DNA of 64,000 nucleotides, from NCBI GenBank assembly GCA_964462535.1, contig CAYWXV010000001.1:165380-229379 (forward strand), written 5' to 3'. The notes beneath the pieces were generated by a model. The model was not told the DNA's origin, did no database searches, and saw nothing but the letters and a program-made list of their open reading frames with translations. The translations under genes and the position numbers were made by a program. Positions 6,161 to 55,360 of this stretch are shown piece after piece; within the stretch, counting starts at the first letter, position 1, and every line of letters starts with the position of its first letter. This DNA is from an uncultured Alphaproteobacteria bacterium (lineage in GTDB: Bacteria; Bacteroidota; Ignavibacteria; OLB7).

Positions 6161-6760
6161 ATGACAACCGCCAGTGATGAAGAACTGATCGAGGCGACCC
6201 TGGCGGGGCGCAGGAATGCGTTTGCGGAACTCGTACGACGCCACGAACGGCGGGTGGAATCGACGATTCGCGGCGTGCTTGGCAATCTGGCCCGGGAGGA
6301 TCTGGCTGATGTTGCACAAGACATCTTTCTCCTCGTTTTTAAGGGACTCGCTTCATTTCGGAGCGAATCGCTCTTTTCGACGTGGGTGACCCGAATCGCA
6401 TTGCGACATTGCTTCCGCGAACAGAAGAGGAGGAAGCGTCGCAGTTCGATCTTTCTCCACGCCCGGACGGACGATGACGGACGTTCGGCTGAAGAGACCA
6501 TTGCTTCGCCGGGAAGCACTGACAGGGCAATCATTGCTGACGAGCGAAAGTCAGCCGTCGTCGACGCACTGTACCGGCTCCCGGAGGAATTCCGAACGGT
6601 GCTCGTTATGCGCATCGTCGAGGAGATGCCTGTCGAAGAGGTCGCCGCAGTGCTCGGCGTATCGACAGGAACGGTGAAGTCAAGACTCCATCGGGCAAAA
6701 GATAAGATGCGCGAGCTACTGCAAGGACAGGACGTGGAATTCGCCCTGGAACCCGGATAG
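6161..6760 (+). CDS. RNA polymerase ECF-subfamily sigma-70 factor.
   Basis: Region 2 (ELVRRHERRVESTIRGVLGN...DIFLLVFKGL) and region 4 HTH (EEVAAVLGVSTGTVKSRLHRAKDKMRELL). Confidence 0.85.
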   Translation: MTTASDEELIEATLAGRRNAFAELVRRHERRVESTIRGVLGNLAREDLADVAQDIFLLVFKGLASFRSESLFSTWVTRIALRHCFREQKRRKRRSSIFLHARTDDDGRSAEETIASPGSTDRAIIADERKSAVVDALYRLPEEFRTVLVMRIVEEMPVEEVAAVLGVSTGTVKSRLHRAKDKMRELLQGQDVEFALEPG

Positions 6761-6776
6761 GGGAGGTTATACATCC

Positions 6777-7091
6777 GTGAGACCAACGTTGGATTCGAAT
6801 GAAGAGAGCGAGCTGTCGCGCCCATCTATCGACAGCATACTGCGATCGGAGATCCCACGCGGACTCCCAATTGGGTTCGCGGAGCGCATGGCCGATCTGG
6901 CGATGTCCGCGCCCGCGCGTGATCGTCTGTCGATTTGGGACCTCCTACTCCAGTTGAGTCCACGGGTTGGCATTGCCGCAGGTGTCATCGCCACTCTCCT
7001 CCTCGTCTTTGCTTTGACCGGCGAAGGTCCGACGATGTTTGAGGCGATGGGGGACTATGCTACCGTGGAGACGATAATCTCAATACCATGA
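6777..7091 (+). CDS. Small single-pass membrane protein; putative cognate anti-sigma factor.
   Basis: Sits directly downstream of the ECF sigma. TM helix VGIAAGVIATLLLVFALTG. ATGA overlap with the next gene. No zinc-anti-sigma HxxxCxxC motif. Confidence 0.35.
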   Translation: MRPTLDSNEESELSRPSIDSILRSEIPRGLPIGFAERMADLAMSAPARDRLSIWDLLLQLSPRVGIAAGVIATLLLVFALTGEGPTMFEAMGDYATVETIISIP

Positions 7092-7969
7092 TGACGACGC
7101 GTCAGAAAGCAATACTCGGACTCGCGGCAGTTTTCGTGATCGGTGGGATTATCGGCGCCGCGATCGTCGGGCTGGTGGTTCGGGAGAACGTCCAGTCAGC
7201 TCGCTCACTTCGGGAGCGTGATGGGTTCCTTCGCTTTGTCGAGCACCGACTTGAATTGACGGAGGCACAACGTGACTCGCTCGCCGACGAACTTGATTCT
7301 CTGTACACCAATCTGGCCAGTCTCCGCAAATCAACCTCCAACGAACTGGCAGCTCTGCTCGACTCGTTTCGCGTTCGCGTGGAACCGCAGCTGACCCCCC
7401 ATCAACGAGAACTCCTGAAGCGACAGGAGGAGTTCATGCGACACGGCCTTCCCCCGGCGAGCGATTCGCGTATGCGCCCGTTTGCGCGCCGTGGCCCCCC
7501 ACCGGGTGGAGGTCCCCCCGGTGAAATGGACGCCCCGCCGCCCCTTCTTGACGATGTTCCTCAAGGGAGGGTGGACACGGGGCGACACGGGACAGCCCCC
7601 CCAAGACCCTACCGGTCAGACACGGCGGCCCCGCCACGAGTAGGATCCGGGCAGGTCGAGTTGGGAGTCGTACCATCGGAAGGCGACTCGCTCGCCGCCG
7701 GACTGCGTCGGTTCCAAACGAAATTGGAGAGGCTTCGGGAACACGTGGCTACGACTCCACAACAAAACGAAGCGATTCGGCAGATAGTGGAGGAGACGCT
7801 TCGTCGTGCTCGCATTGCGCGAGAGGAATTCGCTGGCCAGCCGTTTATCCTGAGACGGACGATGCACCGGCTGATGGGGGAGGCGCGCCGCAAGGTGTTT
7901 GATGTGCTGACACCCGAGCAGAGACGGTCCGTGAGGGAGATGCGCGGGGGGCAAAACTTGGAGGACTAG
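7088..7969 (+). CDS. Periplasmic LTXXQ-motif protein (Spy/CpxP-like envelope stress chaperone family) with a Pro/Gly-rich low-complexity linker.
   Basis: N-terminal TM/signal. Repeated LTxxQ motifs: LELTEAQRDSL, LTPHQRELL, LTPEQRRSV. Third gene of a sigma / anti-sigma / effector operon. Confidence 0.6.
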   Translation: MMTTRQKAILGLAAVFVIGGIIGAAIVGLVVRENVQSARSLRERDGFLRFVEHRLELTEAQRDSLADELDSLYTNLASLRKSTSNELAALLDSFRVRVEPQLTPHQRELLKRQEEFMRHGLPPASDSRMRPFARRGPPPGGGPPGEMDAPPPLLDDVPQGRVDTGRHGTAPPRPYRSDTAAPPRVGSGQVELGVVPSEGDSLAAGLRRFQTKLERLREHVATTPQQNEAIRQIVEETLRRARIAREEFAGQPFILRRTMHRLMGEARRKVFDVLTPEQRRSVREMRGGQNLED

Positions 7970-8013
7970 CTGGGTGGCGACTCGCCCCCTTGTGGAATAC
8001 ACACCACCAGTCC

Positions 8014-8060
8014 GGGAATGGTAAACGAGCGGGGCGCTGTTGCGCTCCGCTCGTTCGTTT
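8014..8060 (+). terminator. Probable intrinsic terminator after the ECF operon.
   Basis: 14-bp stem AAACGAGCGGGGCGC / GCGCTCCGCTCGTT (one mismatch) with loop TGTT, followed by a T-rich tract (CGTTTCC...GTTTGCTTCGTTTC). Lies 45 nt after the stop codon. Confidence 0.5.
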
Positions 8061-8177
8061 CCGGCGTGTTTGCTTCGTTTCGGAAGAATTTGATTCGGAC
8101 CCAGGGTAGGCTATATTCGCCGGCCATCGCCCTCCACAACCAGTGTATCACGCTCCATACGACCATACAGATACGGC

Positions 8178-9518
8178 ATGCATTTCGCTCGAGCAATAGA
8201 GGATTCGCTCCACGGACCCGCGCTCAGGGATCGGCTGTCCGATCTTCTGGACGAAGCACGTTCGCGTACATTCGAGGTGATCGAGCCTCTGGCGGCTGAC
8301 GATCTGTTCCAGCAACATGACCGGCTGATGAGTCCCATCATTTGGGACGTTGGTCACATTGGAAACTTCGAGGAGCTCTGGGGAGTTCGCCCCTTTCACG
8401 ACAACGTGCGTCCGGAATACGACGCGATGTACGATGCGATGAAAGTCCCGCGTGCCATACGCGACAAGTTGCCGCTACCGGCTCTGTCGATCGTGATGGA
8501 GTATCTCTCGACCGTTCGAGGTCGTGTAAGCGAATACCTTCGGCGTGCCGATCTTGATAGCTCGGACCCGTTGGTCCACGACGGATATGTTTGGCAGATG
8601 ATCCTCCAGCACGAGTACCAGCACAACGAGACCATCCTGCAGACACTTCAACTGAAAGGGGGCGAGCCCTACAGCCCAGTTCGGCGCCGCCCGCTACCAA
8701 AGGGGAATGGTGCAGTCACTGGAATGACACGCGTACCGGCAGGAGAGTTCCTCATGGGGACAGACGACCGCAGCGCGGCGTACGACAATGAGCGCGACAG
8801 GCACGCGGTGTACGTGCCGGAGTTCCTCATCGACGTTTCCCCCGTTTCGAATGGCGACTACTTGAAGTTCGTCGAGGCGGGTGGGTACGAGCGCCAGGAG
8901 TTCTGGGACCCGGCTGGTTGGGAGTTTATAACGGGACAAGGAATCCACGCCCCAAAGCACTGGAACCAATCGTTGGACGGAACGTGGACGACTCGCTCCA
9001 TGAATCAGTCGGAACCCCTCAACGAAAGACGCCCGGTTTGCCATGTGTGCTGGTACGAGGCCGATGCCTTTGCACGGTACGTGGGCAAGCGACTTCCCAC
9101 CGAGACGGAGTGGGAGAAGGCGGCCGCCTGGAACCCAATCACGGGAGATTCGCTGGCATATCCTTGGGGCAACGATCCACCAAGCCGCGATCGGGCCAAT
9201 CTCGATCAACGTGGGTGGATGGCCGCCGAGATTGGTGCCTATCCTGCCGGGGTCAGTCCGGTTGGGTGTCACCAGATGATCGGCGATGTGTGGGAGTGGA
9301 CGGCGAGTGATTTTCTTCCCTATCCAGGATTCGCAGCCTTCCCGTACGCGGAGTACTCCGAGGTCTTCTTTGGACCCGAGTACAAGGTCCTGCGAGGCGG
9401 GTCGTGGGCGACTCGACCGGGAGCTATTCGCAACACGTTCCGGAACTGGGACTACCCCATTCGCCGTCAGATCTTTGCTGGCTTTCGCTGTGCCATGGAT
9501 CCCGACACCGGCGATTGA
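8178..9518 (+). CDS. egtB: Ergothioneine biosynthesis sulfoxide synthase EgtB (DinB_2 domain plus FGE-sulfatase domain).
   Basis: N-terminal DinB_2 (SPIIWDVGHIGNFEELW). C-terminal FGE-like region (GEFLMGTDD...NERDRHAVYVPEFLIDVSPVSNGDYLKFV...LRGGSW). Confidence 0.85.
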   Translation: MHFARAIEDSLHGPALRDRLSDLLDEARSRTFEVIEPLAADDLFQQHDRLMSPIIWDVGHIGNFEELWGVRPFHDNVRPEYDAMYDAMKVPRAIRDKLPLPALSIVMEYLSTVRGRVSEYLRRADLDSSDPLVHDGYVWQMILQHEYQHNETILQTLQLKGGEPYSPVRRRPLPKGNGAVTGMTRVPAGEFLMGTDDRSAAYDNERDRHAVYVPEFLIDVSPVSNGDYLKFVEAGGYERQEFWDPAGWEFITGQGIHAPKHWNQSLDGTWTTRSMNQSEPLNERRPVCHVCWYEADAFARYVGKRLPTETEWEKAAAWNPITGDSLAYPWGNDPPSRDRANLDQRGWMAAEIGAYPAGVSPVGCHQMIGDVWEWTASDFLPYPGFAAFPYAEYSEVFFGPEYKVLRGGSWATRPGAIRNTFRNWDYPIRRQIFAGFRCAMDPDTGD

Positions 9519-9549
9519 TAGCGCGCTGAACCAAGACTTCGGAGACCCA

Positions 9550-10536
9550 ATGTCCGCACCTCAATTGTCGGTTCGCGACAACGCCTCGAGCAGCCGCGAA
9601 AACGAACTCATTGCAGATATCCGAACTGGTCTGCTCTGCCGACCCAAAGAGCTGTCCCCCAAGTACTTCTACGACGAACGGGGATCCCGCCTCTTTGAGC
9701 GGATCTGCGAGCTCCCAGAGTACTATCAGACGCGAACCGAACGGGGAATCATTCTGGCGAATAGTGCCGCACTCGTCGACTTGGTTGGGAGCGGGACGGT
9801 TGTGGAACTTGGAGCGGGTAATGCCTCTAAGAGCAGGCTGTTTCTTGAGGCGGCTCACGCTATCGGGAAGACCGTCGACTTTGTTCCGGTCGATATTAGC
9901 TCCGTGATGTTGGAGCAGACCGCTGTGGAACTCCGCGCACGTTATCCATGGGTTGCGGTTCATCCGGTTGCGGCCGATTTCACGAGGCATATTTCAGTGA
10001 GACCCTCGTCCAATCCAAGGCTCATTCTCTTCCTGGGAGGGACTATCGGGAACTTTGGTGAGGCGGAGGGAGCCGAGCTGCTCGCGCGAATCGCGTCGGC
10101 GATGAACACGTCCGATCGCTTCGTTCTTGGAATTGATCTCGTTAAGGATCCTGCTATCCTCCACGCGGCCTACAACGACGCTGACGGAGTAACGGCCGAC
10201 TTTAACCTCAATGTTCTTCGCGTCCTGAATCGAGAGGCTGGTGCTGCATTCAACCTCACCAAATTCCGCCACTACGCATTCTACAACCCGCACGCGGAGC
10301 AGATCGAGATGCACCTCGCGAGCGTGGAATCCCAGACCGTTCCCATCTCCGCCCTCAACGCCTCCGTGGAGTTTGAACGGGGGGAGACGATCCGTACAGA
10401 GATTTCTCGAAAGTTCTCCAGGGGAAGTGTCGAACGGCTGCTGGAGCTGGGAGGTATGCAACTCGAGCAATTTCTGGTTGATGACCACGAGTTGTTCGCC
10501 CTTTGCGTGGCCCGCCGAATCAACGGGGTCAACTGA
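9550..10536 (+). CDS. egtD: L-histidine N-alpha-methyltransferase EgtD.
   Basis: PKYFYDERGSRLFERICELPEYYQTRTE...VELGAGNASKSRLFLEA...LGGTIGNF is the TIGR03438-like pattern. A GGAG box sits 5 nt upstream of the ATG at 9550. The ORF-track start at 9286 is an upstream in-frame extension. Confidence 0.85.
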   Translation: MSAPQLSVRDNASSSRENELIADIRTGLLCRPKELSPKYFYDERGSRLFERICELPEYYQTRTERGIILANSAALVDLVGSGTVVELGAGNASKSRLFLEAAHAIGKTVDFVPVDISSVMLEQTAVELRARYPWVAVHPVAADFTRHISVRPSSNPRLILFLGGTIGNFGEAEGAELLARIASAMNTSDRFVLGIDLVKDPAILHAAYNDADGVTADFNLNVLRVLNREAGAAFNLTKFRHYAFYNPHAEQIEMHLASVESQTVPISALNASVEFERGETIRTEISRKFSRGSVERLLELGGMQLEQFLVDDHELFALCVARRINGVN

Positions 10537-10537
10537 T

Positions 10538-11749
10538 ATGCCACCCGCAATACTCCCACCTCGCTCATCGTTCGTCCACGCGATCGTTGCCGATGAACTT
10601 TTCGCCCTCTCCCCGAGCGACAGAGTGGGATTGGAGGTTGAGGTCTTCATCGTTTCCGACAGCGGTCACAGACATTTCCCCGAAGACGAGCGCGTGAATT
10701 TCTACAGGGCCCTTGCACGCGAGTTTGATGGCGAGTTTTCGTTTGGAGCGGAGGGGGAGCCGGTCGTCGCGCTGCGGAATGGTGGAAAGATTACGTTCGA
10801 GCCCGCGGGGCAGCTGGAGTACAGCGGTCCGCCATTCGACAGTTCGCTCGATGCGTCGGTGGATGCGGTCGAGTTTGTGACGCGACTGCAACGTGTAGCC
10901 CGATCGGTGCGAATGGATGTCGTGATGAAGGGCTTCGACGATCGTTTTGAAGAACCACCTCTGGTGGTGGCCAAATCGCGGTACGTCGCAATGGATAACT
11001 ACTTCGGGCGTATCGGTGACTACGGACGGATGATGATGCGCCGAACGTGCGCGCTGCAGGTCAACCTCGACTTCGGTGGCTTGGGGACCAACCAGGAGCG
11101 CTGGCGGCTGGCGAACATGATAGCCCCCGCGCTGAACGCGCTGTTCGCGAACTCTCCTGCTACTCGAAACGAACGAGCGTATCGGAGCTTCCGGTACGAG
11201 ATTTGGAAACATGCTGATCCGACACGAGCCGGGCGCCTCTTTGATCGTCCGGACCTGGACCCGGTCGCCGACTATGTTCGCTTCGCACTTGACGCAAGGG
11301 TCATGTTCGTGCGACTCGATGACGGCAGGCACGTTGTTCCCACGCCCGAACTGACGTTCAGACGATGGATGTCGGTTGGTTGGGAGGGGCGTCTCCCGAC
11401 ATCGTCCGACTGGCGCCGCCACCTCACCACCCTGTTTCCCGATGTCCGGCCACGCGGCTGGATGGAGGTTCGATCGATCGATGCGCAGCCGGTAGAGATG
11501 ATTGGTGTTGTCGCGTCTGTTGTGGCCGCTGCGCTGTACGATGAAGCGTGCAGGCGTGACCTACTTCGGATGCTGGAGAATCGTGACCGGGTCGCGATTG
11601 ACGATGGGGAGCACGATGGGTGCTTGGTCTCGGATCTGCAGGCCGGGATCGAGATCGCCCGCGTCGTCGCCGATCGTCTACCACTCCCGGCCTGGCGAGA
11701 CCAGCTCGATCGGCATGTGGCGATGCTCCTCTCAAACGTGCGAGCGTAG
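10538..11749 (+). CDS. egtA: GCS2-family glutamate--cysteine ligase (EgtA-like gamma-glutamylcysteine synthetase).
   Basis: VGLEVEVFIV...GQLEYSGPP...RRTCALQVNLDF are GCS2 / carboxylate-amine ligase motifs. The ATG is coupled to the egtD stop (TGATATG). Confidence 0.7.
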   Translation: MPPAILPPRSSFVHAIVADELFALSPSDRVGLEVEVFIVSDSGHRHFPEDERVNFYRALAREFDGEFSFGAEGEPVVALRNGGKITFEPAGQLEYSGPPFDSSLDASVDAVEFVTRLQRVARSVRMDVVMKGFDDRFEEPPLVVAKSRYVAMDNYFGRIGDYGRMMMRRTCALQVNLDFGGLGTNQERWRLANMIAPALNALFANSPATRNERAYRSFRYEIWKHADPTRAGRLFDRPDLDPVADYVRFALDARVMFVRLDDGRHVVPTPELTFRRWMSVGWEGRLPTSSDWRRHLTTLFPDVRPRGWMEVRSIDAQPVEMIGVVASVVAAALYDEACRRDLLRMLENRDRVAIDDGEHDGCLVSDLQAGIEIARVVADRLPLPAWRDQLDRHVAMLLSNVRA

Positions 11750-11871
11750 ATTCGGTTCCTCCACCCGCACCGCCGGTTCCCAATCTGTAACACTTCCCCG
11801 GACGTGTTTTGCACGGCGTGGCTTCTCCCTAACTTTGCCCCCCTTCAATCAACCATCCGAACTGTACTATC

Positions 11872-13278
11872 ATGGCAGAGAAGAACTTCGACTGTATCGT
11901 CATTGGAAGCGGGCCGGGAGGATACATAGCTGCAATCCGTGCTCATCAACTTGGGTTGAAGACGGCGATCGTTGAGCGCGATCGGCTTGGTGGCGTCTGC
12001 TTGAACTGGGGTTGCATTCCCACAAAGGCCCTTCTGAAGAATGCCGAGTACATGCACTTTCTGAATCACGCGGGCGACTTCGGATTCACCGTTGGTGAGG
12101 TTGCGGTCGACTTCAAGAAGGTCATCTCGCGCAGCCGCGACGTCGCTGACGCCAACTCGTCTGGAGTCAACTTCCTGATGAAGAAGAATAGCGTCGAAGT
12201 CTTCAATGGATCCGGATTTGTGCCCCGGGCAGGCGTCGTCGAAGTGCGGAACAGTGATGGCAAGGTCTCAGATACGCTGACGGCCTCGAAGGGAATCATC
12301 GTAGCAACCGGAGCTCGTGCCCGTCTCTTCCCCGGATTCGAGGTCGATCGGAAGCGTGTCATCACCTCAACGGAGGCCATGCTTTTGGACGAGGCTCCTG
12401 CCTCGATGATCGTTATAGGAGGGGGTGCAATTGGCGTTGAGTTCGCGTACTTCTACAATGCCTTCGGTACCAAAGTCACCATCATCGAGATGATGCCGGC
12501 GATTCTCCCTGTCGAGGACGAAGAGTCGTCCAAGGAGGTGGCGCGCGCGTTCAAAAAGAAGAAGGTGGACATTCTGACGGAGACCCGGGTGTTGTCTGTC
12601 AAGACTGTCGGCGAGGGTGTCGAGGTCGTGATCGAGGACAAGAAGGGAGTGCAGAAGACGTTGAATGCGGACTACGCGTTGAACGCCGTGGGCGTGACTG
12701 GGAACGTTGAGAACCTTGGACTTGAACAACTAGGCGTCACGATCGAGCGTGGTCACATCAAGGTCGATACGTTCATGCAGACTAACGTGGCCGGCATTTA
12801 CGCGATAGGCGATGTCGTAGGAGCACCATGGCTCGCGCATGTCGCATCGCATGAGGGACTGGTGGCGGTTGAGCACATGGCGGGGCACCATACGGACGGG
12901 ATGCACTATGACAATATTCCGGGCTGCACGTACTGTCAGCCGCAGGTTGCCTCCGTTGGGCTAACGGAGAAGAAGGCACGCGAGATGGGGTACGACGTGA
13001 AGGTTGGGCGTTTCCCGTTCAAGGCGAGTGGAAAGGCTCGGGCCATTGGGGAGACCGATGGATTTGTCAAGCTCGTTATCGACGCGAAGTATGGCGAGAT
13101 TCTAGGTGGGCACATCGTTGGCGCGGAGGCAACTGAAATGATCGCCGAGATCGTGACCGCCCGTGCCGCGGACGCCACGGCTGAGACGCTGTTCAAGACG
13201 ATCCATGCACACCCGACGCTCTCCGAGGGGGTTATGGAGGCCGCGGCCGACGCGTACGGAGAGGCGCTCAACATCTAA
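11872..13278 (+). CDS. lpdA: Dihydrolipoyl dehydrogenase (E3).
   Basis: FAD fingerprint DCIVIGSGPGGYIAA. Redox-active disulfide GGVCLNWGCIPTKALL. C-terminal HAHPTLSE. Confidence 0.9.
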   Translation: MAEKNFDCIVIGSGPGGYIAAIRAHQLGLKTAIVERDRLGGVCLNWGCIPTKALLKNAEYMHFLNHAGDFGFTVGEVAVDFKKVISRSRDVADANSSGVNFLMKKNSVEVFNGSGFVPRAGVVEVRNSDGKVSDTLTASKGIIVATGARARLFPGFEVDRKRVITSTEAMLLDEAPASMIVIGGGAIGVEFAYFYNAFGTKVTIIEMMPAILPVEDEESSKEVARAFKKKKVDILTETRVLSVKTVGEGVEVVIEDKKGVQKTLNADYALNAVGVTGNVENLGLEQLGVTIERGHIKVDTFMQTNVAGIYAIGDVVGAPWLAHVASHEGLVAVEHMAGHHTDGMHYDNIPGCTYCQPQVASVGLTEKKAREMGYDVKVGRFPFKASGKARAIGETDGFVKLVIDAKYGEILGGHIVGAEATEMIAEIVTARAADATAETLFKTIHAHPTLSEGVMEAAADAYGEALNI

Positions 13279-13314
13279 TTCCCCCTCTGCACGCTTTCAC
13301 GGAAAGGTCTCCCG

Positions 13315-13815
13315 ATGACTCTGGCGGAACAGCTCGTCGATACGTGGCGCATCAGTGCCGAAATCAACCTCTATTTGCTGAGTGCGATACCGGATGAGGG
13401 GTTGGCCGCTTCCTCCGCAACCGGGGGCCGAACGGTCGGGGAGGTGTTCGCCCATCTCCACAACGTCCGCTTGATGTGGATCAAGGTGGCCGATCCCGGA
13501 CTGGCGGCGACGCTCGTCAAGATTGAGCGCGATCGGGCAAGCGATCGCCCTTTGCTTGTTTCCTCCCTCGAAGCATCCTCGGCAGGAATTGCCGCTCTTC
13601 TGCGGACCGGTGCGGATTCCGGGACAATCAAGGGGTTCAAGCCACACGCCTCTGCGTTCCTCGGATACATCATTTCGCACGAGAGTCATCATCGAGGGCA
13701 GGTGCTCGTCGCACTGAAGGGGGCGGGGTTTGGCGTCCCGAAGACGGTGGCCTACGGATTATGGGAGTGGGGCTCACGTGCGAAAGAACTTCACGATCGT
13801 CAGGGGACGGCGTAA
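13315..13815 (+). CDS. DinB/YfiT-superfamily protein (DinB_2-like four-helix-bundle putative metalloenzyme), 166 aa.
   Basis: Spaced His residues (VFAHLHN...ISHESHHRG) and size typical of the DinB_2 family. Embedded between egtA/lpdA and lipB/egtC. Confidence 0.55.
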   Translation: MTLAEQLVDTWRISAEINLYLLSAIPDEGLAASSATGGRTVGEVFAHLHNVRLMWIKVADPGLAATLVKIERDRASDRPLLVSSLEASSAGIAALLRTGADSGTIKGFKPHASAFLGYIISHESHHRGQVLVALKGAGFGVPKTVAYGLWEWGSRAKELHDRQGTA

Positions 13816-14453
13816 TGCCGATTGACGTCGAGTGGCTGGGGAGAGTCCCGTACGGGGAAGCCTGGGAACTCCAGCGGCGCGTCTTCGCCGAAGTCGTATC
13901 CGGTTCCGGCCCAAACCGCTTCCTCCTCTGCGAACATCCCGACGTCCTGACTCTGGGGAGGAATGCCCGCACGGATGAGAACCTCCTTATGGATCGCGAC
14001 GCGCTTCGTGCGGCGGGATACGAGGTGTACGACGTTGATCGAGGTGGCGACGTTACCTATCACGGTCCCGGTCAGCTCGTTGGCTATCCGATTATCCGAC
14101 TTGCGGACTATCGGGAGGATCTGGGTTGGTACATGCGATCTCTGGAGGACTTGATCATCATGATGATCGCGGACGATGGGTTGAACGGAGGGAGGAAAGA
14201 GGGAATGACCGGTGTCTGGGTTGACGACCGCAAGATCTGCGCGATCGGCGTGCGCGCTTCTCGATGGACTACCATGCACGGGTTCGCGCTGAACGTAACG
14301 ACGGACCTGGCCAGATTCGACGCGATCATTCCCTGCGGCATTCGGGAGTATGAGGTGACGTCCATCGAACGCGAAACGGCGACAGCTGTCCCGTTGGACG
14401 AGATGGCAAGACGTGCGGCTGCCTACTGGGACGTGGCCATGAATCCTTCCTGA
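13815..14453 (+). CDS. lipB: Octanoyl-[ACP]:protein N-octanoyltransferase LipB.
   Basis: FLLCEHPDVLTLGRNA...RGGDVTYHGPGQLVGYPI...KICAIGV is conserved across LipB proteins. The start overlaps the previous stop (TAATG). Confidence 0.85.
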   Translation: MPIDVEWLGRVPYGEAWELQRRVFAEVVSGSGPNRFLLCEHPDVLTLGRNARTDENLLMDRDALRAAGYEVYDVDRGGDVTYHGPGQLVGYPIIRLADYREDLGWYMRSLEDLIIMMIADDGLNGGRKEGMTGVWVDDRKICAIGVRASRWTTMHGFALNVTTDLARFDAIIPCGIREYEVTSIERETATAVPLDEMARRAAAYWDVAMNPS

Positions 14454-14564
14454 CGTTCGATTCTCGGCAAATCGTGCCCCATTTGGCCCCCCTGTGTATA
14501 TTCGCGGGCTATTCGACGTGGCGTTGAGGTGAAGAGGGGAACCATGATCACCGATTGAGTACCT

Positions 14565-15458
14565 ATGTGTCGATTCCTGGCATACATCGGCAAACCGGTT
14601 CTTGCTGACGACCTTCTTTACCGTCCGCAGCACTCGCTCATTGAACGGCAGTCGCTGGGGGCGCAGGAAATGTCGATACCGATTAATGGCGATGGATTCG
14701 GCATCAGTTGGTACGACTATCGCCTTGATCCGGAGCCGTGCCGATTCCGGTCTGTCCATCCTTCCTGGAGCGATGAGAACCTTCGATTCCTCGCCAAGAA
14801 GGTGCAGACGCCACTCCTCTTCGCTCACGTTCGTGCGGCGACCCCCGGATCTACTGTCGAGGAGATCAACTGCCATCCGTTTGTGCACGGCCGTATGACC
14901 TGGATGCACAACGGTATGGTACAGGACTTCCGAAAGATCCGTCGTTCACTCCTCCGCGAGTTGAAGGACGAGGCGTACGACTCTGTCCTCGGTTCAACCG
15001 ACAGCGAGCATCTCTTCGGCCTCTTTCTGAACAACCTGCGTAATCCGTCCGGCGACGTATCGACAGAAGAGATGGTGGAAGCGATGTTCAGCATGCTCGA
15101 CGACTTTAATCGCCTGCTGTTCGAGAGTGACGTCCGCGAGCATTCGTACCTCAACATCTGTCTCTCGAATGGACGCTCTCTGATTGCTACCCGGTACACA
15201 ACCAATCCTCGTGTGCAGCCGGCCAGTCTCTATTACATGTTTGGGAAGGAGTATGTCGCAACCGACGGTCGGTGCTTCATGATTCCGGATGACGGTGCCT
15301 CCGAGGCCGTCGTGATTTCCAGCGAGCCATTCACGTCAAACAAGTCCGATTGGGTCAAGGTCACACGGAACTCGATGATCATCATCGACGAAGATCTCTC
15401 GATCCGCTTTGCCGACATCGAACTCCCGTTCGAGAAAGCGACCTTTGTCTACCAATAG
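14565..15458 (+). CDS. egtC: Class-II (Ntn) glutamine amidotransferase, EgtC-like ergothioneine biosynthesis amidohydrolase.
   Basis: Starts MCRFLAYIGKPV with a Cys2 nucleophile, as in EgtC (MCRH...). About 297 aa, GATase_2/EgtC-like. Confidence 0.7.
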   Translation: MCRFLAYIGKPVLADDLLYRPQHSLIERQSLGAQEMSIPINGDGFGISWYDYRLDPEPCRFRSVHPSWSDENLRFLAKKVQTPLLFAHVRAATPGSTVEEINCHPFVHGRMTWMHNGMVQDFRKIRRSLLRELKDEAYDSVLGSTDSEHLFGLFLNNLRNPSGDVSTEEMVEAMFSMLDDFNRLLFESDVREHSYLNICLSNGRSLIATRYTTNPRVQPASLYYMFGKEYVATDGRCFMIPDDGASEAVVISSEPFTSNKSDWVKVTRNSMIIIDEDLSIRFADIELPFEKATFVYQ

Positions 15459-15548
15459 TCCCCGTCCCCGCGCCTCCCACCGTGGAGCGCGCTCTTCCTC
15501 CGCGCGGACCTCTGCGCACGTAATCCGAGCACGATACAAGTCGCGCGA

Positions 15549-17495
15549 ATGATTCCAACGCTACTTCCGATTATTCTCCTTCTTCCGCTCGTGGGGTTCC
15601 TGATCAACGGACTCTTGGGCTCCCGCATCAAGTCGGAGAAGGTCGTGGGGGCGATCGGCACTGCCATGATCGCCATCCCGTTTGCCCTGGCCGTCTTCGT
15701 GCTCGTCGAGCTGGTTGGCGCTCCCGTTGAGGAGCGTACGATCCACGTTCGACTCCTCGAGTGGATTGCAGCAGGGAACTTCTCCGTCGACTTCGCCTAC
15801 ATGGTCGATCCGCTGTCGATGGTATTCCTCCTCATCATCACCGGCGTAGGCTCCCTGATTCACATCTACTCGATTGGCTACATGCATGGCGATCGAGGAT
15901 TCGCACGGTTCTTCGCCTATCTGAACCTGTTCATCTTCATGATGTTGAACCTGGTTCTGGCGGACAACTACCTGGTGACCTTTCTGGGGTGGGAGGGGGT
16001 TGGTCTCTGTTCGTATCTCCTGATCGGGTTCTGGTACGATCAGGAATTCGAGGGAGTAGGGATTCACTGGACTGGCGATGCCGCGAAGAAGGCGTTCGTG
16101 ATGAATCGAATCGGCGACCTGGGAATGCTTGTCGGGATGTTCATCCTGTTCTGGCAGTTCGGAACGCTCCAGTATTCGGGTGTCGAAGCCGCGGTTGCAC
16201 AGGGAGTATCATCGTCGAAAGAGACGCTGATCACAATCGCGACACTGGCTCTTTTCCTTGGGGCGTGCGGGAAGTCGGCACAACTTCCGCTAAGCGTGTG
16301 GCTTCCCGATGCCATGGCGGGCCCCACGCCTGTCTCGGCATTGATCCACGCCGCGACAATGGTAACCGCTGGAATCTTCCTTGTGGCGCGGAATGCGACC
16401 CTATTCTCCATGTCGCATACCACGATGACCGTTGTAACCGTGGTTGCCGCAGCAACCGCACTCATTGCCGCCACCATCGGTATCGTGCAGAACGACATCA
16501 AGAAGGTTCTCGCCTACTCTACCGTCTCACAGCTCGGGTTCATGTTCATCGCCCTCGGTGTTGGTGCCTGGACGACGGCAGTCTTCCACGTAATGACGCA
16601 CGCGTTCTTCAAGGCGCTCCTCTTCCTGGGATCCGGCTCCGTCATCCATGGGATGCACCACGAACAGAACATGCAGAAGATGGGTGGGCTCAAGTCGCAC
16701 ATGCCGTCGACATACCGGACGTATGTGATCGGAGCGCTTGCGATCAGCGGCATTCCGATATTCTCCGGCTTCTTTTCCAAGGACGAGATTCTGCTGAACG
16801 CCTTTGTCAACGGCGGGCCGATACTGTGGGGTATCGGCGCGGTAGCGGCATTCTGCACCGCGTTCTACATGTTCCGCTCCGTTCACCTGACGTTTGATGG
16901 CACGGAGCGATTCGATACGCATCACACACATCCTCACGAGGTGGGTCTGATGACTGCACCGTTGTGGGTTCTTGCCTTCCTGTCGGTCTTTGGCGGGTTC
17001 CTTGGACTCCCCGCACTCCTCGGTGAACATGTCAACATCCTCGAATCATGGCTCGAACCGGTGTTTGCAACGGCAAATGCCAACCTCCATCATGGACATC
17101 CGGGCGCAACGCTTGAGATGGTTTTGATGGGCGTGTCGATCGGCGTGGCTTTATCCGCGATCGTGCTTGCACGTTACGTGTACATCAAGCATCCCGAGGT
17201 GGCGGTGCGCACAGCGACCCGTTTCAAATCGATCCACGCGCTCTTGTGGAATAAGTGGTACATCGACAACATCTACGAAACTCTGGTTGTCGGACCTACG
17301 ACCTGGCTGTCGCGTGCGTTTCTTCTCCGCGTGGTCGATCAGGGTATGATCGATGGCACGTTGAACGGCTCGGGAAGGCTTACAGCCGCGCTCGGTGCGA
17401 CGATTCGAAGAATGCAAACAGGGGTGGCGCAGAACTACGCCGCCGTGGTTGTCGCAGGCATCGTCGTGATGCTGGCATTCATCCTTCTGCGCTGA
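15549..17495 (+). CDS. nuoL: NADH-quinone oxidoreductase subunit L.
   Basis: 648 aa polytopic antiporter-like subunit with conserved WLPDAMAGPTPVSALIHAATMVTAG and a C-terminal long horizontal helix region. Confidence 0.9.
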   Translation: MIPTLLPIILLLPLVGFLINGLLGSRIKSEKVVGAIGTAMIAIPFALAVFVLVELVGAPVEERTIHVRLLEWIAAGNFSVDFAYMVDPLSMVFLLIITGVGSLIHIYSIGYMHGDRGFARFFAYLNLFIFMMLNLVLADNYLVTFLGWEGVGLCSYLLIGFWYDQEFEGVGIHWTGDAAKKAFVMNRIGDLGMLVGMFILFWQFGTLQYSGVEAAVAQGVSSSKETLITIATLALFLGACGKSAQLPLSVWLPDAMAGPTPVSALIHAATMVTAGIFLVARNATLFSMSHTTMTVVTVVAAATALIAATIGIVQNDIKKVLAYSTVSQLGFMFIALGVGAWTTAVFHVMTHAFFKALLFLGSGSVIHGMHHEQNMQKMGGLKSHMPSTYRTYVIGALAISGIPIFSGFFSKDEILLNAFVNGGPILWGIGAVAAFCTAFYMFRSVHLTFDGTERFDTHHTHPHEVGLMTAPLWVLAFLSVFGGFLGLPALLGEHVNILESWLEPVFATANANLHHGHPGATLEMVLMGVSIGVALSAIVLARYVYIKHPEVAVRTATRFKSIHALLWNKWYIDNIYETLVVGPTTWLSRAFLLRVVDQGMIDGTLNGSGRLTAALGATIRRMQTGVAQNYAAVVVAGIVVMLAFILLR

Positions 17496-17517
17496 ACCTG
17501 AACTAGAGACATTAGAC

Positions 17518-19131
17518 GTGATCTTTTTACTCCTGACGCTCCTGATCCCTCTGGCGACGTCCGCAGTCATGATGCTTCTCCCGGCCAATCGTCATGCGGC
17601 ACACCGCTCACTTGCACTGATTGGATCGCTGGCATCGCTGGTTACATCGCTCGTCGTCTGGTTTAACTTCGATCACACGACTCCAGTCTTTCAGTTCCTA
17701 ACCGATATCACTTGGATTTCATCGCTTGATGTCGGATTCCGGTTCGGCGTGGACGGGATGTCCTTGTTGATGATTGCGCTGACCACGGTCATTATGCCGA
17801 TAGCGATCGTGTCGAGTTGGGAGCCGGTAGGGGATCGTGTCAAACTCTACTACATCATGCTGATGATTCTGGAGTTTGGTTTGATCGGTGTGTTTGCGTC
17901 GCTCGATACGTTTGTCTTTTACGTTTTCTGGGAAGTCATTCTGATCCCGATGTACTTCCTGATCGGCATCTGGGGTGGGAAGGATCGCATCTACGCTGCG
18001 ATGAAGTTCTTTCTCTACACAATGGCTGGATCGCTTCTCATGCTGGTGGCCATCGTGTATGTCGGACTCCACGCGCAGGCGGTCAACGGACATTTCACTA
18101 CCGATCTTCGAAAGCTCCTGCTTATCGCCCCCGGTATCGAGGCCGGCGTGCAGCACTGGCTCTTCCTGGCTTTCGCCGTCTCTTTCCTCATCAAGGTTCC
18201 CGCGTTCCCGTTTCACACCTGGCTTCCCGACGCACACACGCAGGCGCCAACGGCGGGCTCCGTCATTCTTGCAGCCGTGATGCTGAAGATGGGGACGTAC
18301 GGCCTGATTCGCTTCTGCCTTGGCTTGTTCCCGCAGTCGTCCCTCTATTTCGCTGACGCCATTGCCGTCCTTGCCGTCATCGGCATTATCTATGGCGCGC
18401 TGCTGGCAATGGTTCAGACCGACATCAAGAAGCTGGTCGCCTACTCGTCGATCGCGCACCTCGGATTCGTTACGCTCGGCATCTTCTCCATGACGGCTGA
18501 AGGCATGCAGGGGGCCATCCTGCAAAACGTGAATCACGGGCTGTCGACCGGGATGCTCTTCCTGCTGGTTGGCTTTATTTACGAGAGACGTCATACCCGA
18601 GAGATGGCCGAATTCGGAGGTATCGCCCGTTCGATGCCCGTATATGCGACGTTCTTTCTGATAGCAGTCCTCTCATCAGTTGGCCTCCCTGGGCTCAATG
18701 GATTCGTTGGGGAGTACCTTACGTTGATAGGGGCGTTCGTCAGCGATTACTTCGCAACCAAGTGGTTTGCCATCATTGCTGCGTCGGGAGTGATCCTCGC
18801 AGCCGTGTACCTCCTTGTACTCTACCAGCGAATCTTCTTCGGGAAGCTCGACAACCCGGCCAACGCCCGGCTCAAGGACCTGTCACGGACGGAGATCGCC
18901 CTGCTTGTTCCGATGGTGGTCCTCTGCGTTTGGATTGGCATCCAGCCCGGAACGTTCCTTACCGTGTCTGAGGTTACCTCGCGTGCGATCGTCGGACGCG
19001 TGACATCGATAAAGGGGCCGCAGCGGTATGCGGCGGAAGCAGCGTTGTTCAATCAGAGTCTCGGGCTGGCGAAGCCGGGCTCCGCGCCTTCTCACACACC
19101 TCCGCCAAGCGTGGTGGCACCAGCGAAGTAG
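17518..19131 (+). CDS. nuoM: NADH-quinone oxidoreductase subunit M (GTG start).
   Basis: FPFHTWLPDAHTQAPTAGSVILAAVMLKMGTYG motif. About 537 aa with roughly 14 TM helices. Confidence 0.9.
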   Translation: MIFLLLTLLIPLATSAVMMLLPANRHAAHRSLALIGSLASLVTSLVVWFNFDHTTPVFQFLTDITWISSLDVGFRFGVDGMSLLMIALTTVIMPIAIVSSWEPVGDRVKLYYIMLMILEFGLIGVFASLDTFVFYVFWEVILIPMYFLIGIWGGKDRIYAAMKFFLYTMAGSLLMLVAIVYVGLHAQAVNGHFTTDLRKLLLIAPGIEAGVQHWLFLAFAVSFLIKVPAFPFHTWLPDAHTQAPTAGSVILAAVMLKMGTYGLIRFCLGLFPQSSLYFADAIAVLAVIGIIYGALLAMVQTDIKKLVAYSSIAHLGFVTLGIFSMTAEGMQGAILQNVNHGLSTGMLFLLVGFIYERRHTREMAEFGGIARSMPVYATFFLIAVLSSVGLPGLNGFVGEYLTLIGAFVSDYFATKWFAIIAASGVILAAVYLLVLYQRIFFGKLDNPANARLKDLSRTEIALLVPMVVLCVWIGIQPGTFLTVSEVTSRAIVGRVTSIKGPQRYAAEAALFNQSLGLAKPGSAPSHTPPPSVVAPAK

Positions 19132-19175
19132 TGTATGCTCGTATCCCGACCTCTTCACACTAACGCTTCGATAGC

Positions 19176-20609
19176 ATGACCGAAAACGACTTTCTGACTG
19201 CGCTGCCGATCGAGATAGTGTCGGTAATGGCGCTGTTGATCATGCTGGTCGACTCGTTCGTTCCCCGCTCCAGTCGCCTGCTCTCTGTCCTGTCCATTGT
19301 CGGGCTCGGAGGGGGAATCGTTGGCGCATGTGTCACGCTGCTTCAGCGCGAGATGCTGGGATTCGGAGGGCTGATTGCCGCCGGTGCATGGCGAAACGTT
19401 TTCGACATCATATTCTGCACCGCTGGAATTCTTACGGTTCTGCTTGCGCGTGATTACCTGCGGCGCGTGGGGGCAATGTTTGACGAATTCTATACGCTGT
19501 TGACGATGTCGGTCGTTGGCATGATGTTGATGGCTCATGCCAACGACTTCATGATCCTGTTCGTTGGTCTGGAGGTGATGTCTATTGCCTTCTACGTGAT
19601 GGCGGGTCTCATGCGGCGTTCGCTTTCATCGAACGAGGCGTCGATGAAGTACTTCCTGCTCGGGGCATTCGCCTCAGGATTTCTGCTGTACGGAATCGCC
19701 CTCATATATGGTGCGACCGGCGGGACGGGATACAGCGCTCTGGCCAAGGGTGTCGCGGATACGGGGTTCCCGGTCCTCCTTTGGGGTGGCGTGGCCTTGC
19801 TGATCGTCGGATTTGGATTCAAGGTTGCGGCCTTTCCATTTCATCAGTGGGCTCCGGATGTCTATCACGGCTCTCCGACGGTTGTGACGGGATTTATGAG
19901 CACGGCAGGGAAAGCCGCGGCGTTCGCCGGCTTCGTGGGAGCGATGGCTCCGATCCTGGCCTCCGGTGTGGCCGAAGCAGCATCAGTCCGGACAGTGTTG
20001 GGTGTCATCGCCGCCGCATCGATGTTAGTTGGAAACGTGGTGGCGATTGCACAGACCAACATCAAACGGATGCTTGCCTACTCGTCGATCGCCCACGCGG
20101 GGTACATGATGATCGGCCTGGCATCCGGCACGCTGACGGGGTACACGGGTATCATGTACTACCTGGCCGCCTATCTCTTCATGCAGATCGGAGCCTTCGC
20201 TGTCGTTGGCATGCTGGAGAAGGAGAATGGCGGAATGCTCTCTATCGAAGACTATAGGGGCCTTGGTCGTCGACGTCCAGGCCTTGCGATGGCGATGGCA
20301 GTGTTCATGTTCTCGTTGACCGGTATGCCTCCGTTTGCCGGCTTCTTCGGGAAGTACATGCTCTTTACTGCCGCAGTCTCGTCGAACATGACGTGGCTGG
20401 CGATCATTGGAGTCCTCGCCTCCGTGATCAGCGCATGGTTCTATCTCGGTCTGATCGTTACCATGTTTTTCCGGGAGCCTTCGGGCGACTCGGACGTAGA
20501 AGGCCTCACCTTCGGTACAGCCGTCGCCGGGGCTTTGGCAATCGCAATTGTCGGGGCGCTTGTCGTCGGATTCATACCGGATCAAATCATGCGACTGGGA
20601 GGCTACTGA
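19176..20609 (+). CDS. nuoN: NADH-quinone oxidoreductase subunit N.
   Basis: FPFHQWAPDVYHGSPTVVTGFMSTAGKAAAF motif. 477 aa polytopic. Confidence 0.9.
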   Translation: MTENDFLTALPIEIVSVMALLIMLVDSFVPRSSRLLSVLSIVGLGGGIVGACVTLLQREMLGFGGLIAAGAWRNVFDIIFCTAGILTVLLARDYLRRVGAMFDEFYTLLTMSVVGMMLMAHANDFMILFVGLEVMSIAFYVMAGLMRRSLSSNEASMKYFLLGAFASGFLLYGIALIYGATGGTGYSALAKGVADTGFPVLLWGGVALLIVGFGFKVAAFPFHQWAPDVYHGSPTVVTGFMSTAGKAAAFAGFVGAMAPILASGVAEAASVRTVLGVIAAASMLVGNVVAIAQTNIKRMLAYSSIAHAGYMMIGLASGTLTGYTGIMYYLAAYLFMQIGAFAVVGMLEKENGGMLSIEDYRGLGRRRPGLAMAMAVFMFSLTGMPPFAGFFGKYMLFTAAVSSNMTWLAIIGVLASVISAWFYLGLIVTMFFREPSGDSDVEGLTFGTAVAGALAIAIVGALVVGFIPDQIMRLGGY

Positions 20610-43461: not shown

Positions 43462-43506
43462 GTATATTCGCGGCGTCGGGGCCATTTGCGATCGGTTTCG
43501 ACCTCC

Positions 43507-55342: not shown

Positions 55343-55360
55343 AGGGGAAGCTGACCCGGA

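Follow-up and report, generated by a model that had tools for sequence, protein, structure and literature searches.

A linked egtB-egtD-glutamate-cysteine ligase module beside a nuoL-associated amidohydrolase in a Kapaibacterium-like genome

Do the genes at positions 8178-15458 of the stretch analysed here (the window, 64,000 nucleotides) make up a complete mycobacterial-type pathway to ergothioneine, an antioxidant? The sequence-only reading proposed that they do, with egtB, egtD and an egtA-like ligase split from egtC by lipoate and redox genes. The genes it named are all present where it placed them and, from egtB through nuoN, all lie on the + strand. The interpretation we favour, with a probability of roughly 70%, is that two independent units stand side by side, an egtB-egtD-ligase module and a backbone containing the amidohydrolase and nuoLMN. 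The first unit would have its own promoter-like element with a terminator-like hairpin upstream; the second would be chromosomal backbone, lpdA-DinB-lipB followed by a separate amidohydrolase-nuoL-nuoM-nuoN unit. The module of the original proposal is thus retained, while the EgtC assignment and the redox island are not. The host genome is Kapaibacterium-like (FCB group, Bacteroidota).

The products of egtB (8178-9518; TIGR03440, 423 bits, cut-off 360) and egtD (9550-10536; TIGR03438, 352 bits, cut-off 291; PF10017) both exceed the NCBIfam cut-offs. EgtD, the histidine N-alpha-trimethyltransferase of hercynine formation, has 328 residues, a length backed by gene calls on independent contigs. 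EgtB, the hercynine sulfoxide synthase, combines a DinB_2 domain with an FGE-sulfatase one and its best solved structure is M. thermoresistibile EgtB (PDB: 4x8b, 346 bits), compared with 202 bits for the Chloracidobacterium type II enzyme. The iron, catalytic and gamma-glutamylcysteine/hercynine-binding positions (PMC4768315) are retained in full (10/10: His51, His134, His138, Tyr377, Arg87, Arg90, Tyr380, Trp415, Asp416 and Arg420), whereas type II EgtB has Phe, Phe and Ala at the positions of Trp415, Asp416 and Arg420. The window EgtB is on these grounds assigned to the mycobacterial type I, the gamma-glutamylcysteine kind, not to type II. Across phyla, all EgtBs linked to the ligase keep the ten residues (45 complete sequences and 5 truncated by the contig).

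The proposal of a complete EgtA/B/C/D set depends on the gene at 14565-15458, 2815 nt downstream of the ligase (the 2.8 kb given earlier), which would be egtC, with lpdA, the DinB-family gene and lipB forming a co-regulated thiol/redox island. The encoded protein, a Cys2 Ntn amidohydrolase (GATase_4, YafJ/3mdn-like), is the sole EgtC-like one in the 64 kb; its best family is TIGR03442 EgtC, and its 191 bits, below the cut-off of 218.65, equal those of amidohydrolases inside canonical egtA-B-C-D clusters (193-194 bits). It carries Cys2 together with oxyanion and glutamyl-binding motifs (HNG, STDSE) and is predicted to be a competent-looking gamma-glutamyl/glutamine Ntn hydrolase. However, identity is 58-69% inside its own subfamily but falls to 26-34% against EgtCs from within egt clusters, relative to which it has an extra insertion and a C-terminal tail. 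Six egt-cluster-associated EgtCs, M. smegmatis EgtC included, have in common Q[SA][YW]AP plus N[AV]DG[WTY]G; in the motif comparison this signature is absent from the nuoL-linked group and from PDB 3mdn. Among solved structures the latter, a class-II glutamine amidotransferase domain protein, comes closest to the window protein [148 bits, ~40% identity] and shares with it NGDGFG, NCHPF and the Cys nucleophile, although the window protein, like the nuoL-linked proteins related to it, has an insertion of 13-16 residues and is extended at the C-terminus; other YafJ-like GATase_4 proteins group here. M. smegmatis EgtC (PDB: 4zfj) is alike in Ntn-hydrolase fold family, Cys2 and predicted gamma-glutamyl amide hydrolysis, but its match covers the first 120 residues and reaches just 49 bits, and the genomic partner of the window amidohydrolase is nuoL, not egtB or egtD.

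This partnership is seen in all 42 testable metagenomic loci (at least 56% identity to the amidohydrolase, readable downstream DNA). Egt genes are near the amidohydrolase in only two of them (L135, L136); about 40 of the 42 have none in the available sequence within 8 kb, and four further lineages have the amidohydrolase-nuoL pair with no egt genes in the available sequence within 10 kb. The view around each homologue covers 8-10 kb, and these genomes may carry egt genes elsewhere. On shared contigs the amidohydrolase is 89-92% identical and the ligase just 49-56%, and the amidohydrolase evolves at a much lower rate than the egt genes. The protein belongs to a distinct nuoL-linked subfamily and is not an orthologous EgtC; for the EgtC step it can be no more than an unproven candidate. 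A type I EgtB requires a deglutamylating enzyme. Because of this need, and because the window has no other EgtC-like gene and this one scores as bona fide cluster-embedded EgtCs do, the amidohydrolase may moonlight in the EgtC step or have been recruited to it.

The intervening genes argue against an island in the same way. lpdA (dihydrolipoyl dehydrogenase, 11872-13278; TIGR01350, 571 bits, cut-off 409), the DinB-family gene (13315-13815; PF05163), lipB (octanoyltransferase, 13815-14453; NF010925, 207 bits, cut-off 155; PF21948), the amidohydrolase and the nuo genes at 15549-20609 (nuoL 15549-17495, nuoM 17518-19131, nuoN 19176-20609) are conserved chromosomal backbone of the lineage. Locus L137 has the order lpdA-DinB-lipB-amidohydrolase-nuoLMN-hrcA with RarA and other genes upstream, and the 5.2 kb upstream of the backbone hold no egt genes; conversely, the egt trio stands without the backbone in L003 and L005. 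lpdA is conserved in relatives at 72-84% identity, L137 included, and the DinB-family gene occupies the same position in L007, L008, L135 and L137. In favour of a functional link, the window gene order is repeated in L004, L090, L135 and L136, and a flavoprotein disulfide reductase also adjoins egtB in seven Gemmatimonadales loci.

Transcription signals, from which the units are predicted, bear on both sides. Between the ECF-sigma/anti-sigma/LTXXQ genes and egtB, a GC-rich terminator-like hairpin (8010-8066, + strand; -41.9 kcal/mol, z = -5.8, none of 200 shuffles as stable) is the likely 5' boundary of the egt unit and is followed by a promoter-like element (8090-8119, + strand; TTGATT-16-TATATT, extended to TATATTCG; 9/12 matches). 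The exact 8-mer TATATTCG occurs only three times in the 64 kb, and all three copies precede a gene: egtB, the amidohydrolase and tRNA-Ser. The amidohydrolase has a promoter-like element of its own, GTATATTCGCGGGCT (14493-14511, + strand), which is kept ahead of the same gene in L137, L090, L135 and L134. A hairpin follows nuoN (z = -2.4), and the amidohydrolase-nuoL gap holds no significant one. The block is nevertheless on one strand throughout, and since no terminator was found in the ligase-lpdA gap or in the lipB-amidohydrolase gap, the whole block may be co-transcribed by read-through. Taking both sides together, we regard a complete set with a co-regulated island as unlikely and return to the reading of two adjacent units.

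Within the egt unit, the GCS2 ligase (10538-11749) has TIGR03444 EgtA as its best family but scores 211 bits, far below the cut-off of 371. This cut-off is uninformative because a ligase from inside a canonical egtA-B-C-D cluster of an actinobacterium (L012) also falls below it, with 208 bits. A threshold check proposed with the sequence-only reading is accordingly passed by EgtB and EgtD and failed by the ligase and the amidohydrolase, but does not discriminate, as canonical-cluster ligase and amidohydrolases fail alike. The best solved relative of the ligase is plant glutamate-cysteine ligase (PDB: 2gwc), with which it has in common EP.GQ.E, RTC..QVNLDF and HLTT.FP.VR. This resemblance, together with the low score, the 21 of 80 homologous loci that have no egt neighbour and the lack of an adjacent EgtC in most egtB-egtD-ligase trios, would suit a general enzyme of the gamma-glutamylcysteine/glutathione pathway beside an EgtB that takes free cysteine and needs no EgtC step. 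Linkage and residue conservation make this improbable. In loci retrieved with the ligase alone, egtB and/or egtD lie beside it in 59/80 and both in 50/80, so the association is far beyond chance, and every one of the closest relatives, at 40-72% identity, is egt-linked. The window EgtB keeps Asp416 and Arg420 and resembles type I far more than the type II enzyme that uses cysteine, and all ligase-linked EgtBs retain the full residue set. The coupling claimed for the three genes stands for egtD and the ligase, whose 1-nt spacing (TGA-T-ATG) indicates one operon, but not for egtB and egtD, which are separated by 31 nt containing GGAG, without overlap; within the interval, genes truly overlap only where the DinB stop runs into the lipB start (TAATG). 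Conserved linkage supports the adjacent ligase as an EgtA-type partner, and egtB, egtD and ligase (8178-11749) form one genuine ergothioneine module, a conclusion we consider solid. That the module instead makes selenoneine or ovothiol, a different selenol or thiol derived from histidine, is most improbable: EgtB does give 357 bits with SenA and 142 bits with the OvoA N-terminal model, but these scores lie below the cut-offs (420 and 400) while that of TIGR03440 is passed, no senB- or senC-like genes were seen adjoining the module, and EgtB conserves the Arg87/Asp416 pair that SenA proteins replace by His and Phe/Tyr (bioRxiv 10.1101/2022.04.13.486033).

Gene identities, residue conservation and synteny statistics, read against established knowledge of the mycobacterial pathway, suggest the following chemistry for the egtB-egtD-ligase unit. 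EgtD would trimethylate histidine to hercynine, the ligase would supply gamma-glutamylcysteine, and type I EgtB would use O2 and iron to join the two into gamma-glutamyl-hercynylcysteine sulfoxide; glutamate removal and C-S cleavage would fall to genes outside the module. The specificities of EgtB and ligase are predicted from residues and linkage, and we infer substrate use and ergothioneine production by the organism on this basis.

Set against the closest systems, the locus extends a known pathway modestly, and the supposed fourth gene belongs with the neighbouring respiratory genes. Mycobacterial egtABCDE (M. smegmatis, M. thermoresistibile) is alike in EgtB type (metal, catalytic and substrate residues), EgtD and linked GCS2 ligase, but the window order is B-D-A instead of A-B-C-D-E, the window has no orthologous egtC, and the host belongs to Bacteroidota/FCB group and is not an actinobacterium. 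An EgtA-type set had been taken as characteristic of Actinobacteria, yet most trio loci are from Gemmatimonadota, where the trio is common, and Kapaibacteriota, with others in Chloroflexota and Acidimicrobiia. In Gemmatimonadota and Kapaibacteriota trios (L001-L005, L017, L022 and others) the three genes, their order and their strand are the same as in the window, EgtB is 55-70% identical with the same ten residues, and most likewise have no adjacent EgtC; downstream genes vary by lineage. Unlike the window, a small number of Gemmatimonadota (L045, L064) carry an EgtC-type gene with the motif directly after the ligase. Type II systems (Chloracidobacterium thermophilum, PDB: 6o6l/6qki; Methylobacterium egtB-egtD) share the egtB-egtD adjacency outside Actinobacteria, but their EgtB uses cysteine, and EgtA and EgtC are not needed. 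As the sequence-only reading had noted, egtE is absent among the ORFs tested in the window, with no class V aminotransferase; the PLP genes present encode a MetB-like enzyme (30799-31953) and, on the - strand, a class III aminotransferase (60540-61973).

The seven genes between 8178 and 15458 all lie on the + strand in the arrangement that the sequence-only reading had described, and the gene calls match those on independent contigs. The egt trio comprises egtB (8178-9518), egtD (9550-10536) and a GCS2-family ligase gene (10538-11749), with a 31-nt gap that contains GGAG at the first junction and a 1-nt gap at the second. A gap of 122 nt leads to lpdA (11872-13278) and one of 36 nt to a DinB-family gene (13315-13815), whose stop codon overlaps the start of lipB (13815-14453) in TAATG (13813-13817); the DinB and lipB genes appear translationally coupled. 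The gene for a Cys2 class-II amidotransferase-like protein (14565-15458, here called the amidohydrolase) follows after 111 nt, and 90 nt separate it from nuoL, which starts at 15549. For both the ligase and the amidohydrolase, the nearest relatives that bear a name come from metagenome-derived genomes of Candidatus Kapaibacterium/Kapaibacteriota, 'Chlorobi' and Ignavibacteria; in the NCBI taxonomy Kapaibacterium belongs to the Bacteroidota (FCB group). The 3.2-Mb genome of a relative (L090) and the window are collinear between glgP and grpE, sharing the order glgP ... ECF sigma factor, egtB, egtD, ligase, lpdA, lipB, amidohydrolase, nuoLMN, hrcA, grpE.

EgtB combines PF12867 (DinB_2) with PF03781 (FGE-sulfatase) and scores 423 bits against TIGR03440, above the cut-off of 360. 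Among solved structures it matches the type I EgtB of M. thermoresistibile [PDB: 4x8b] with 346 bits, as against 202 bits for the type II enzyme of Chloracidobacterium. In the alignment with 4x8b the window protein keeps all ten residues described for EgtB (PMC4768315): the iron ligands His51, His134 and His138, the catalytic Tyr377 and the substrate-binding Arg87, Arg90, Tyr380, Trp415, Asp416 and Arg420. At positions 415, 416 and 420 the type II enzyme carries Phe, Phe and Ala instead, and the type I set is present in all 50 ligase-linked EgtBs. The proposal that this EgtB is of the γ-glutamylcysteine type and outside the type II clade is thus borne out by score and by residues, on which the protein is a predicted type I, γ-glutamylcysteine-dependent enzyme. 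Its score against the SenA model lies under the SenA cut-off, and the aligned Arg87/Asp416 pair argues against a putative SenA-type selenoneine enzyme. EgtD scores 352 bits against TIGR03438 (cut-off 291) and 348 bits against PF10017 (Methyltransf_33).

The best family for the ligase is TIGR03444 (EgtA), at 211 bits under a cut-off of 371. The protein aligns over 316 residues with the plant glutamate-cysteine ligase [PDB: 2gwc], and the core motifs of glutamate-cysteine ligases are invariant across 21 homologues. Alignment of ligase homologues gave 80 genomic loci, in each of which the window proteins were then located. The ligase is egt-linked in 59 of these, accompanied by both egtB and egtD in 50, by egtD in eight and by egtB in one; it stands alone in the other 21. 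Ligases at least 40% identical to the window protein are egt-linked without exception in this set. On account of this linkage and the conserved catalytic core the ligase is accepted as EgtA-like. Trios occur mainly in Gemmatimonadota and also in Kapaibacteriota, in Acidimicrobiia and, with the order A-B-D, in Chloroflexota; lone ligases belong to Holophagae, SAR324, deltaproteobacteria and some further lineages, part of these contigs being truncated. In two Nitriliruptoria loci (L012 and L042) the core genes run ligase-egtB-amidohydrolase, as in Actinobacteria, with egtD after the core in L012 and upstream of it in L042. Three metagenome genomes of Chlorobiota, Kapaibacterium and Ignavibacteria (L006, L007 and L008; 48-50% GC) show hemB-egtD-ligase-lpdA-(DinB)-amidohydrolase-nuoL, with no egtB in the 3-8 kb of available upstream sequence; either egtB lies elsewhere in these genomes or another sulphur-insertion enzyme, such as one of the EanB type, takes its place.

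The amidohydrolase likewise finds its best family in EgtC (TIGR03442) and, with 191 bits, misses the cut-off of 218.65. The sequence-only reading had made the EgtA and EgtC assignments depend on these two thresholds. Both proteins do fall below them, but the shortfall is uninformative, because ligases and amidohydrolases embedded in canonical clusters score below as well. For TIGR03444 the ligase of the canonical egtA-B-C-D cluster in L012 reaches 208 bits, that of a Gemmatimonadales locus (L017) 209 and that of a Chloroflexia locus (L029) 248. For TIGR03442 the cluster-embedded EgtCs span 178-194 bits (194 and 193 in the canonical clusters L012 and L042, 194 in the Isosphaeraceae locus L013, 178 and 185 beside the ligase in Gemmatimonadota L045 and L064), and nuoL-linked homologues that have no egt neighbours span 188-196 (196 and 188 for P0226 and P0185). 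The cut-offs therefore do not discriminate and were dropped as a decisive test. Away from the mycobacterial neighbourhood, genuine members of egt clusters fail the NCBIfam thresholds for EgtA and EgtC, and a protein whose best hit is EgtC may be another enzyme, linked to nuoL; this calls for caution in pathway calls made from best hits.

The reading of 14565-15458 as the gene for the EgtC of this pathway has some arguments on its side. A type I EgtB requires a deglutamylation step, the amidohydrolase is the only EgtC-like gene within the 64-kb window, and it bears the N-terminal Cys nucleophile (MCRF...) and the HNG and GSTDSE motifs of class-II amidotransferases; its predicted Cys2 Ntn γ-glutamyl hydrolase chemistry would suit the EgtC step. 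Among solved structures, however, it is closest to 3mdn (148 bits), a class-II glutamine amidotransferase domain protein from structural genomics, and M. smegmatis EgtC reaches 49 bits over 120 residues. Identity is 58-69% among the nuoL-linked homologues, 38-41% between them and 3mdn, and 26-34% between them and five EgtCs embedded in clusters. Six EgtCs from egt clusters, that of M. smegmatis included, have Q[SA][YW]AP[RQG][ER] and N[AV]DG[WTY]G in common, a signature derived here from those six proteins rather than a published definition; the window amidohydrolase lacks it and has RQSLGAQE..NGDGFG like 3mdn, with which it additionally shares NCHPF. The nuoL-linked proteins also carry an insertion and a C-terminal tail. 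With the signature absent, nuoL as neighbour and such low identity to cluster-embedded EgtCs, the earlier assignment as pathway EgtC does not stand, and an EgtC role for this protein is unlikely. Among the 80 loci, most trios in other phyla have no adjacent EgtC, so that one would ordinarily expect an EgtC to lie unlinked at another place in the genome.

The amidohydrolase instead keeps company with nuoL. A metagenome scan found 46 amidohydrolase loci at 56% identity or more, 42 of which have nuoL, usually as nuoL-M-N, next to the gene; the contigs of the remaining four end about 250 nt or less after it, so that adjacency holds in 42 of 42 testable loci. Only two of the metagenomic loci scanned (L135 and L136) contain egt genes. 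Homologues 58-63% identical precede nuoL directly or at a distance of one to two genes; the genes upstream of them are unrelated, and the available sequence within 10 kb shows no egt genes. In L137 (amidohydrolase and LpdA both 84% identical) RarA and other genes without relation to egt stand before lpdA-DinB-lipB-amidohydrolase-nuoLMN-hrcA; the reverse case is seen in L003 and L005, which have the egt trio with its ECF-side genes but not the lpdA-nuoLMN backbone. The two parts also change at different rates: on contigs that carry both, identity is 92% and 89% for the amidohydrolase, against 56% and 49% for the ligase. An extended motif, GTATATTCGCGGGCT, is kept before the amidohydrolase in relatives, the amidohydrolase-nuoL gap contains no significant hairpin and a hairpin follows nuoN. 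Similarity, synteny, rate of change and transcription signals together set the amidohydrolase apart from the egt module and mark amidohydrolase-nuoLMN as the conserved entity, and the egt module adjoins this unrelated unit.

The unit spans 14565-20609 in the window and recurs in L081-L087, L092, L093, L098-L142 and L154. Separately retrieved contigs of Ignavibacteria- and Kapaibacterium-like lineages also show the amidohydrolase upstream of nuoL, with varying upstream genes, and in lower-GC lineages a conserved promoter-like motif, TTTCGTATTTT(TG), precedes the nuoL-linked gene. We found no explanation for the strict adjacency in the literature, and a literature search on YafJ-type amidotransferases gave nothing relevant on function. 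It is a speculative and rather doubtful suggestion that this YafJ/3mdn-type Ntn amidohydrolase is something new, either a recruited, non-orthologous EgtC replacement in Kapaibacterium-like bacteria or a γ-glutamyl hydrolase tied to NuoL/M/N across Ignavibacteria- and Kapaibacterium-like lineages of Bacteroidota/Chlorobiota. Homologues 34-40% identical from a plasmid collection (Legionella, Sinorhizobium, Streptomyces) have no egtB or egtD nearby and indicate no function. On one of these plasmids, from Streptomyces sp. NBC_01426 (L097, NZ_CP109501.1), a glutamate-cysteine ligase gene adjoins one for a class II glutamine amidotransferase that shares 36% identity with the amidohydrolase, and the 12.8 kb inspected carry no annotated egtB or egtD; this is a ligase and amidohydrolase pair outside ergothioneine clusters.

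The genes between the egt trio and the amidohydrolase are bona fide lipoate-related genes: LpdA scores 571 bits against TIGR01350 (cut-off 409), LipB 207 bits against NF010925 (cut-off 155), and the 13315-13815 product is a Pfam DinB-family protein. The sequence-only reading had seen a possible redox-stress island here. All three are 70-84% identical in relatives, whether the egt trio stands beside them or not, which makes a dedicated island unnecessary, and that interpretation is set aside. DinB-family proteins are often thiol-dependent transferases, and the DinB-family gene stays with lpdA and lipB even in L137, where egt genes are not adjacent. As a weak counterpoint, an association of egt modules with disulphide reductases may recur. 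The egtB of the trio is adjoined by a class I flavoprotein disulphide reductase in seven Gemmatimonadales loci (L037, L061, L065, L071, L072, L075 and L078), 28-32% identical to the window LpdA; the three that were scored (L037, L061 and L075) match PRK06370, RclA and MerA best, all below cut-off. Such a reductase might act on the disulphide of γ-glutamylcysteine or ergothioneine.

Insertion of the egt genes into a nuo operon fails, as the genes upstream of egtB (6161-7969) are not nuoJ/K but code for an ECF sigma factor, for a small protein that by position only is a putative anti-sigma factor, and for a periplasmic LTXXQ (Spy/CpxP-like) protein. L003, L004 and L090 likewise have an ECF sigma gene some kb before egtB, and in L003, where the lpdA-nuoL genes are missing, the other genes upstream of egtB are collinear with the window too. 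Between the LTXXQ gene and egtB a very stable hairpin at 8010-8066 (-41.9 kcal/mol, z = -5.8) probably terminates the ECF-sigma operon and explains the only Rfam match in 7800-15700, a sub-threshold chance match to Rubella_3 at 8024-8095. A TTGATT-16-TATATT element precedes egtB, in scans for sigma-70 promoters and intrinsic terminators that are weak and not designed for Bacteroidota promoters. The exact 8-mer TATATTCG has three copies in 64 kb (0.6 expected), each of them in an intergenic stretch of the + strand. They lie 66 nt ahead of the start of egtB (8112-8119), 68 nt ahead of that of the amidohydrolase (14497-14504) and 37 nt ahead of tRNA-Ser (43463-43470). A regulatory motif specific to egtB and the amidohydrolase was rejected because of the tRNA-Ser copy, which makes TATATTCG look general; it is probably the organism's -10-type promoter element. 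The Bacteroidota -7 motif TAnnTTTG is not enriched (six found, 8.2 expected), and its copy at 11830, before lpdA, is only suggestive.

No EgtE-type (class V aminotransferase) gene was found among the window ORFs tested. The PLP genes found are 30799-31953, for a MetB-like enzyme, and 60540-61973 (- strand), for a class III aminotransferase, in agreement with the earlier remark that no egtE is visible in the window. The gene after egtD in the Nitriliruptoria cluster (L012, 9866-11338), tried as an EgtE probe, had no match in the window and was rejected as such; judged from the translated sequence alone it looks like an S-adenosylhomocysteine hydrolase, which would be a fitting enzyme to clear the by-product that EgtD releases in its three methylations.

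The window thus places a pathway of known type, with EgtB (type I), EgtD and EgtA, in a little-studied lineage. Reviews of a 2014 survey (PMC5790434) give clustered egtABCDE for actinomycetes only and limit egtA almost wholly to Actinobacteria and Proteobacteria. The compact egtB(type I)-egtD-egtA module is common in Gemmatimonadota, for which a literature search found no published link to egt genes, and is present in Kapaibacterium-like Bacteroidota, so the γ-glutamylcysteine route is probably broader than these reviews state. Neither this wider range nor the caution over cut-offs alters the understanding of the pathway. Elsewhere in the window, at 53807-56737 on the - strand, a MoxR-type AAA ATPase (Pfam bpMoxR, 'MoxR-vWA-beta-propeller ternary system' domain) adjoins a von Willebrand A-domain protein.
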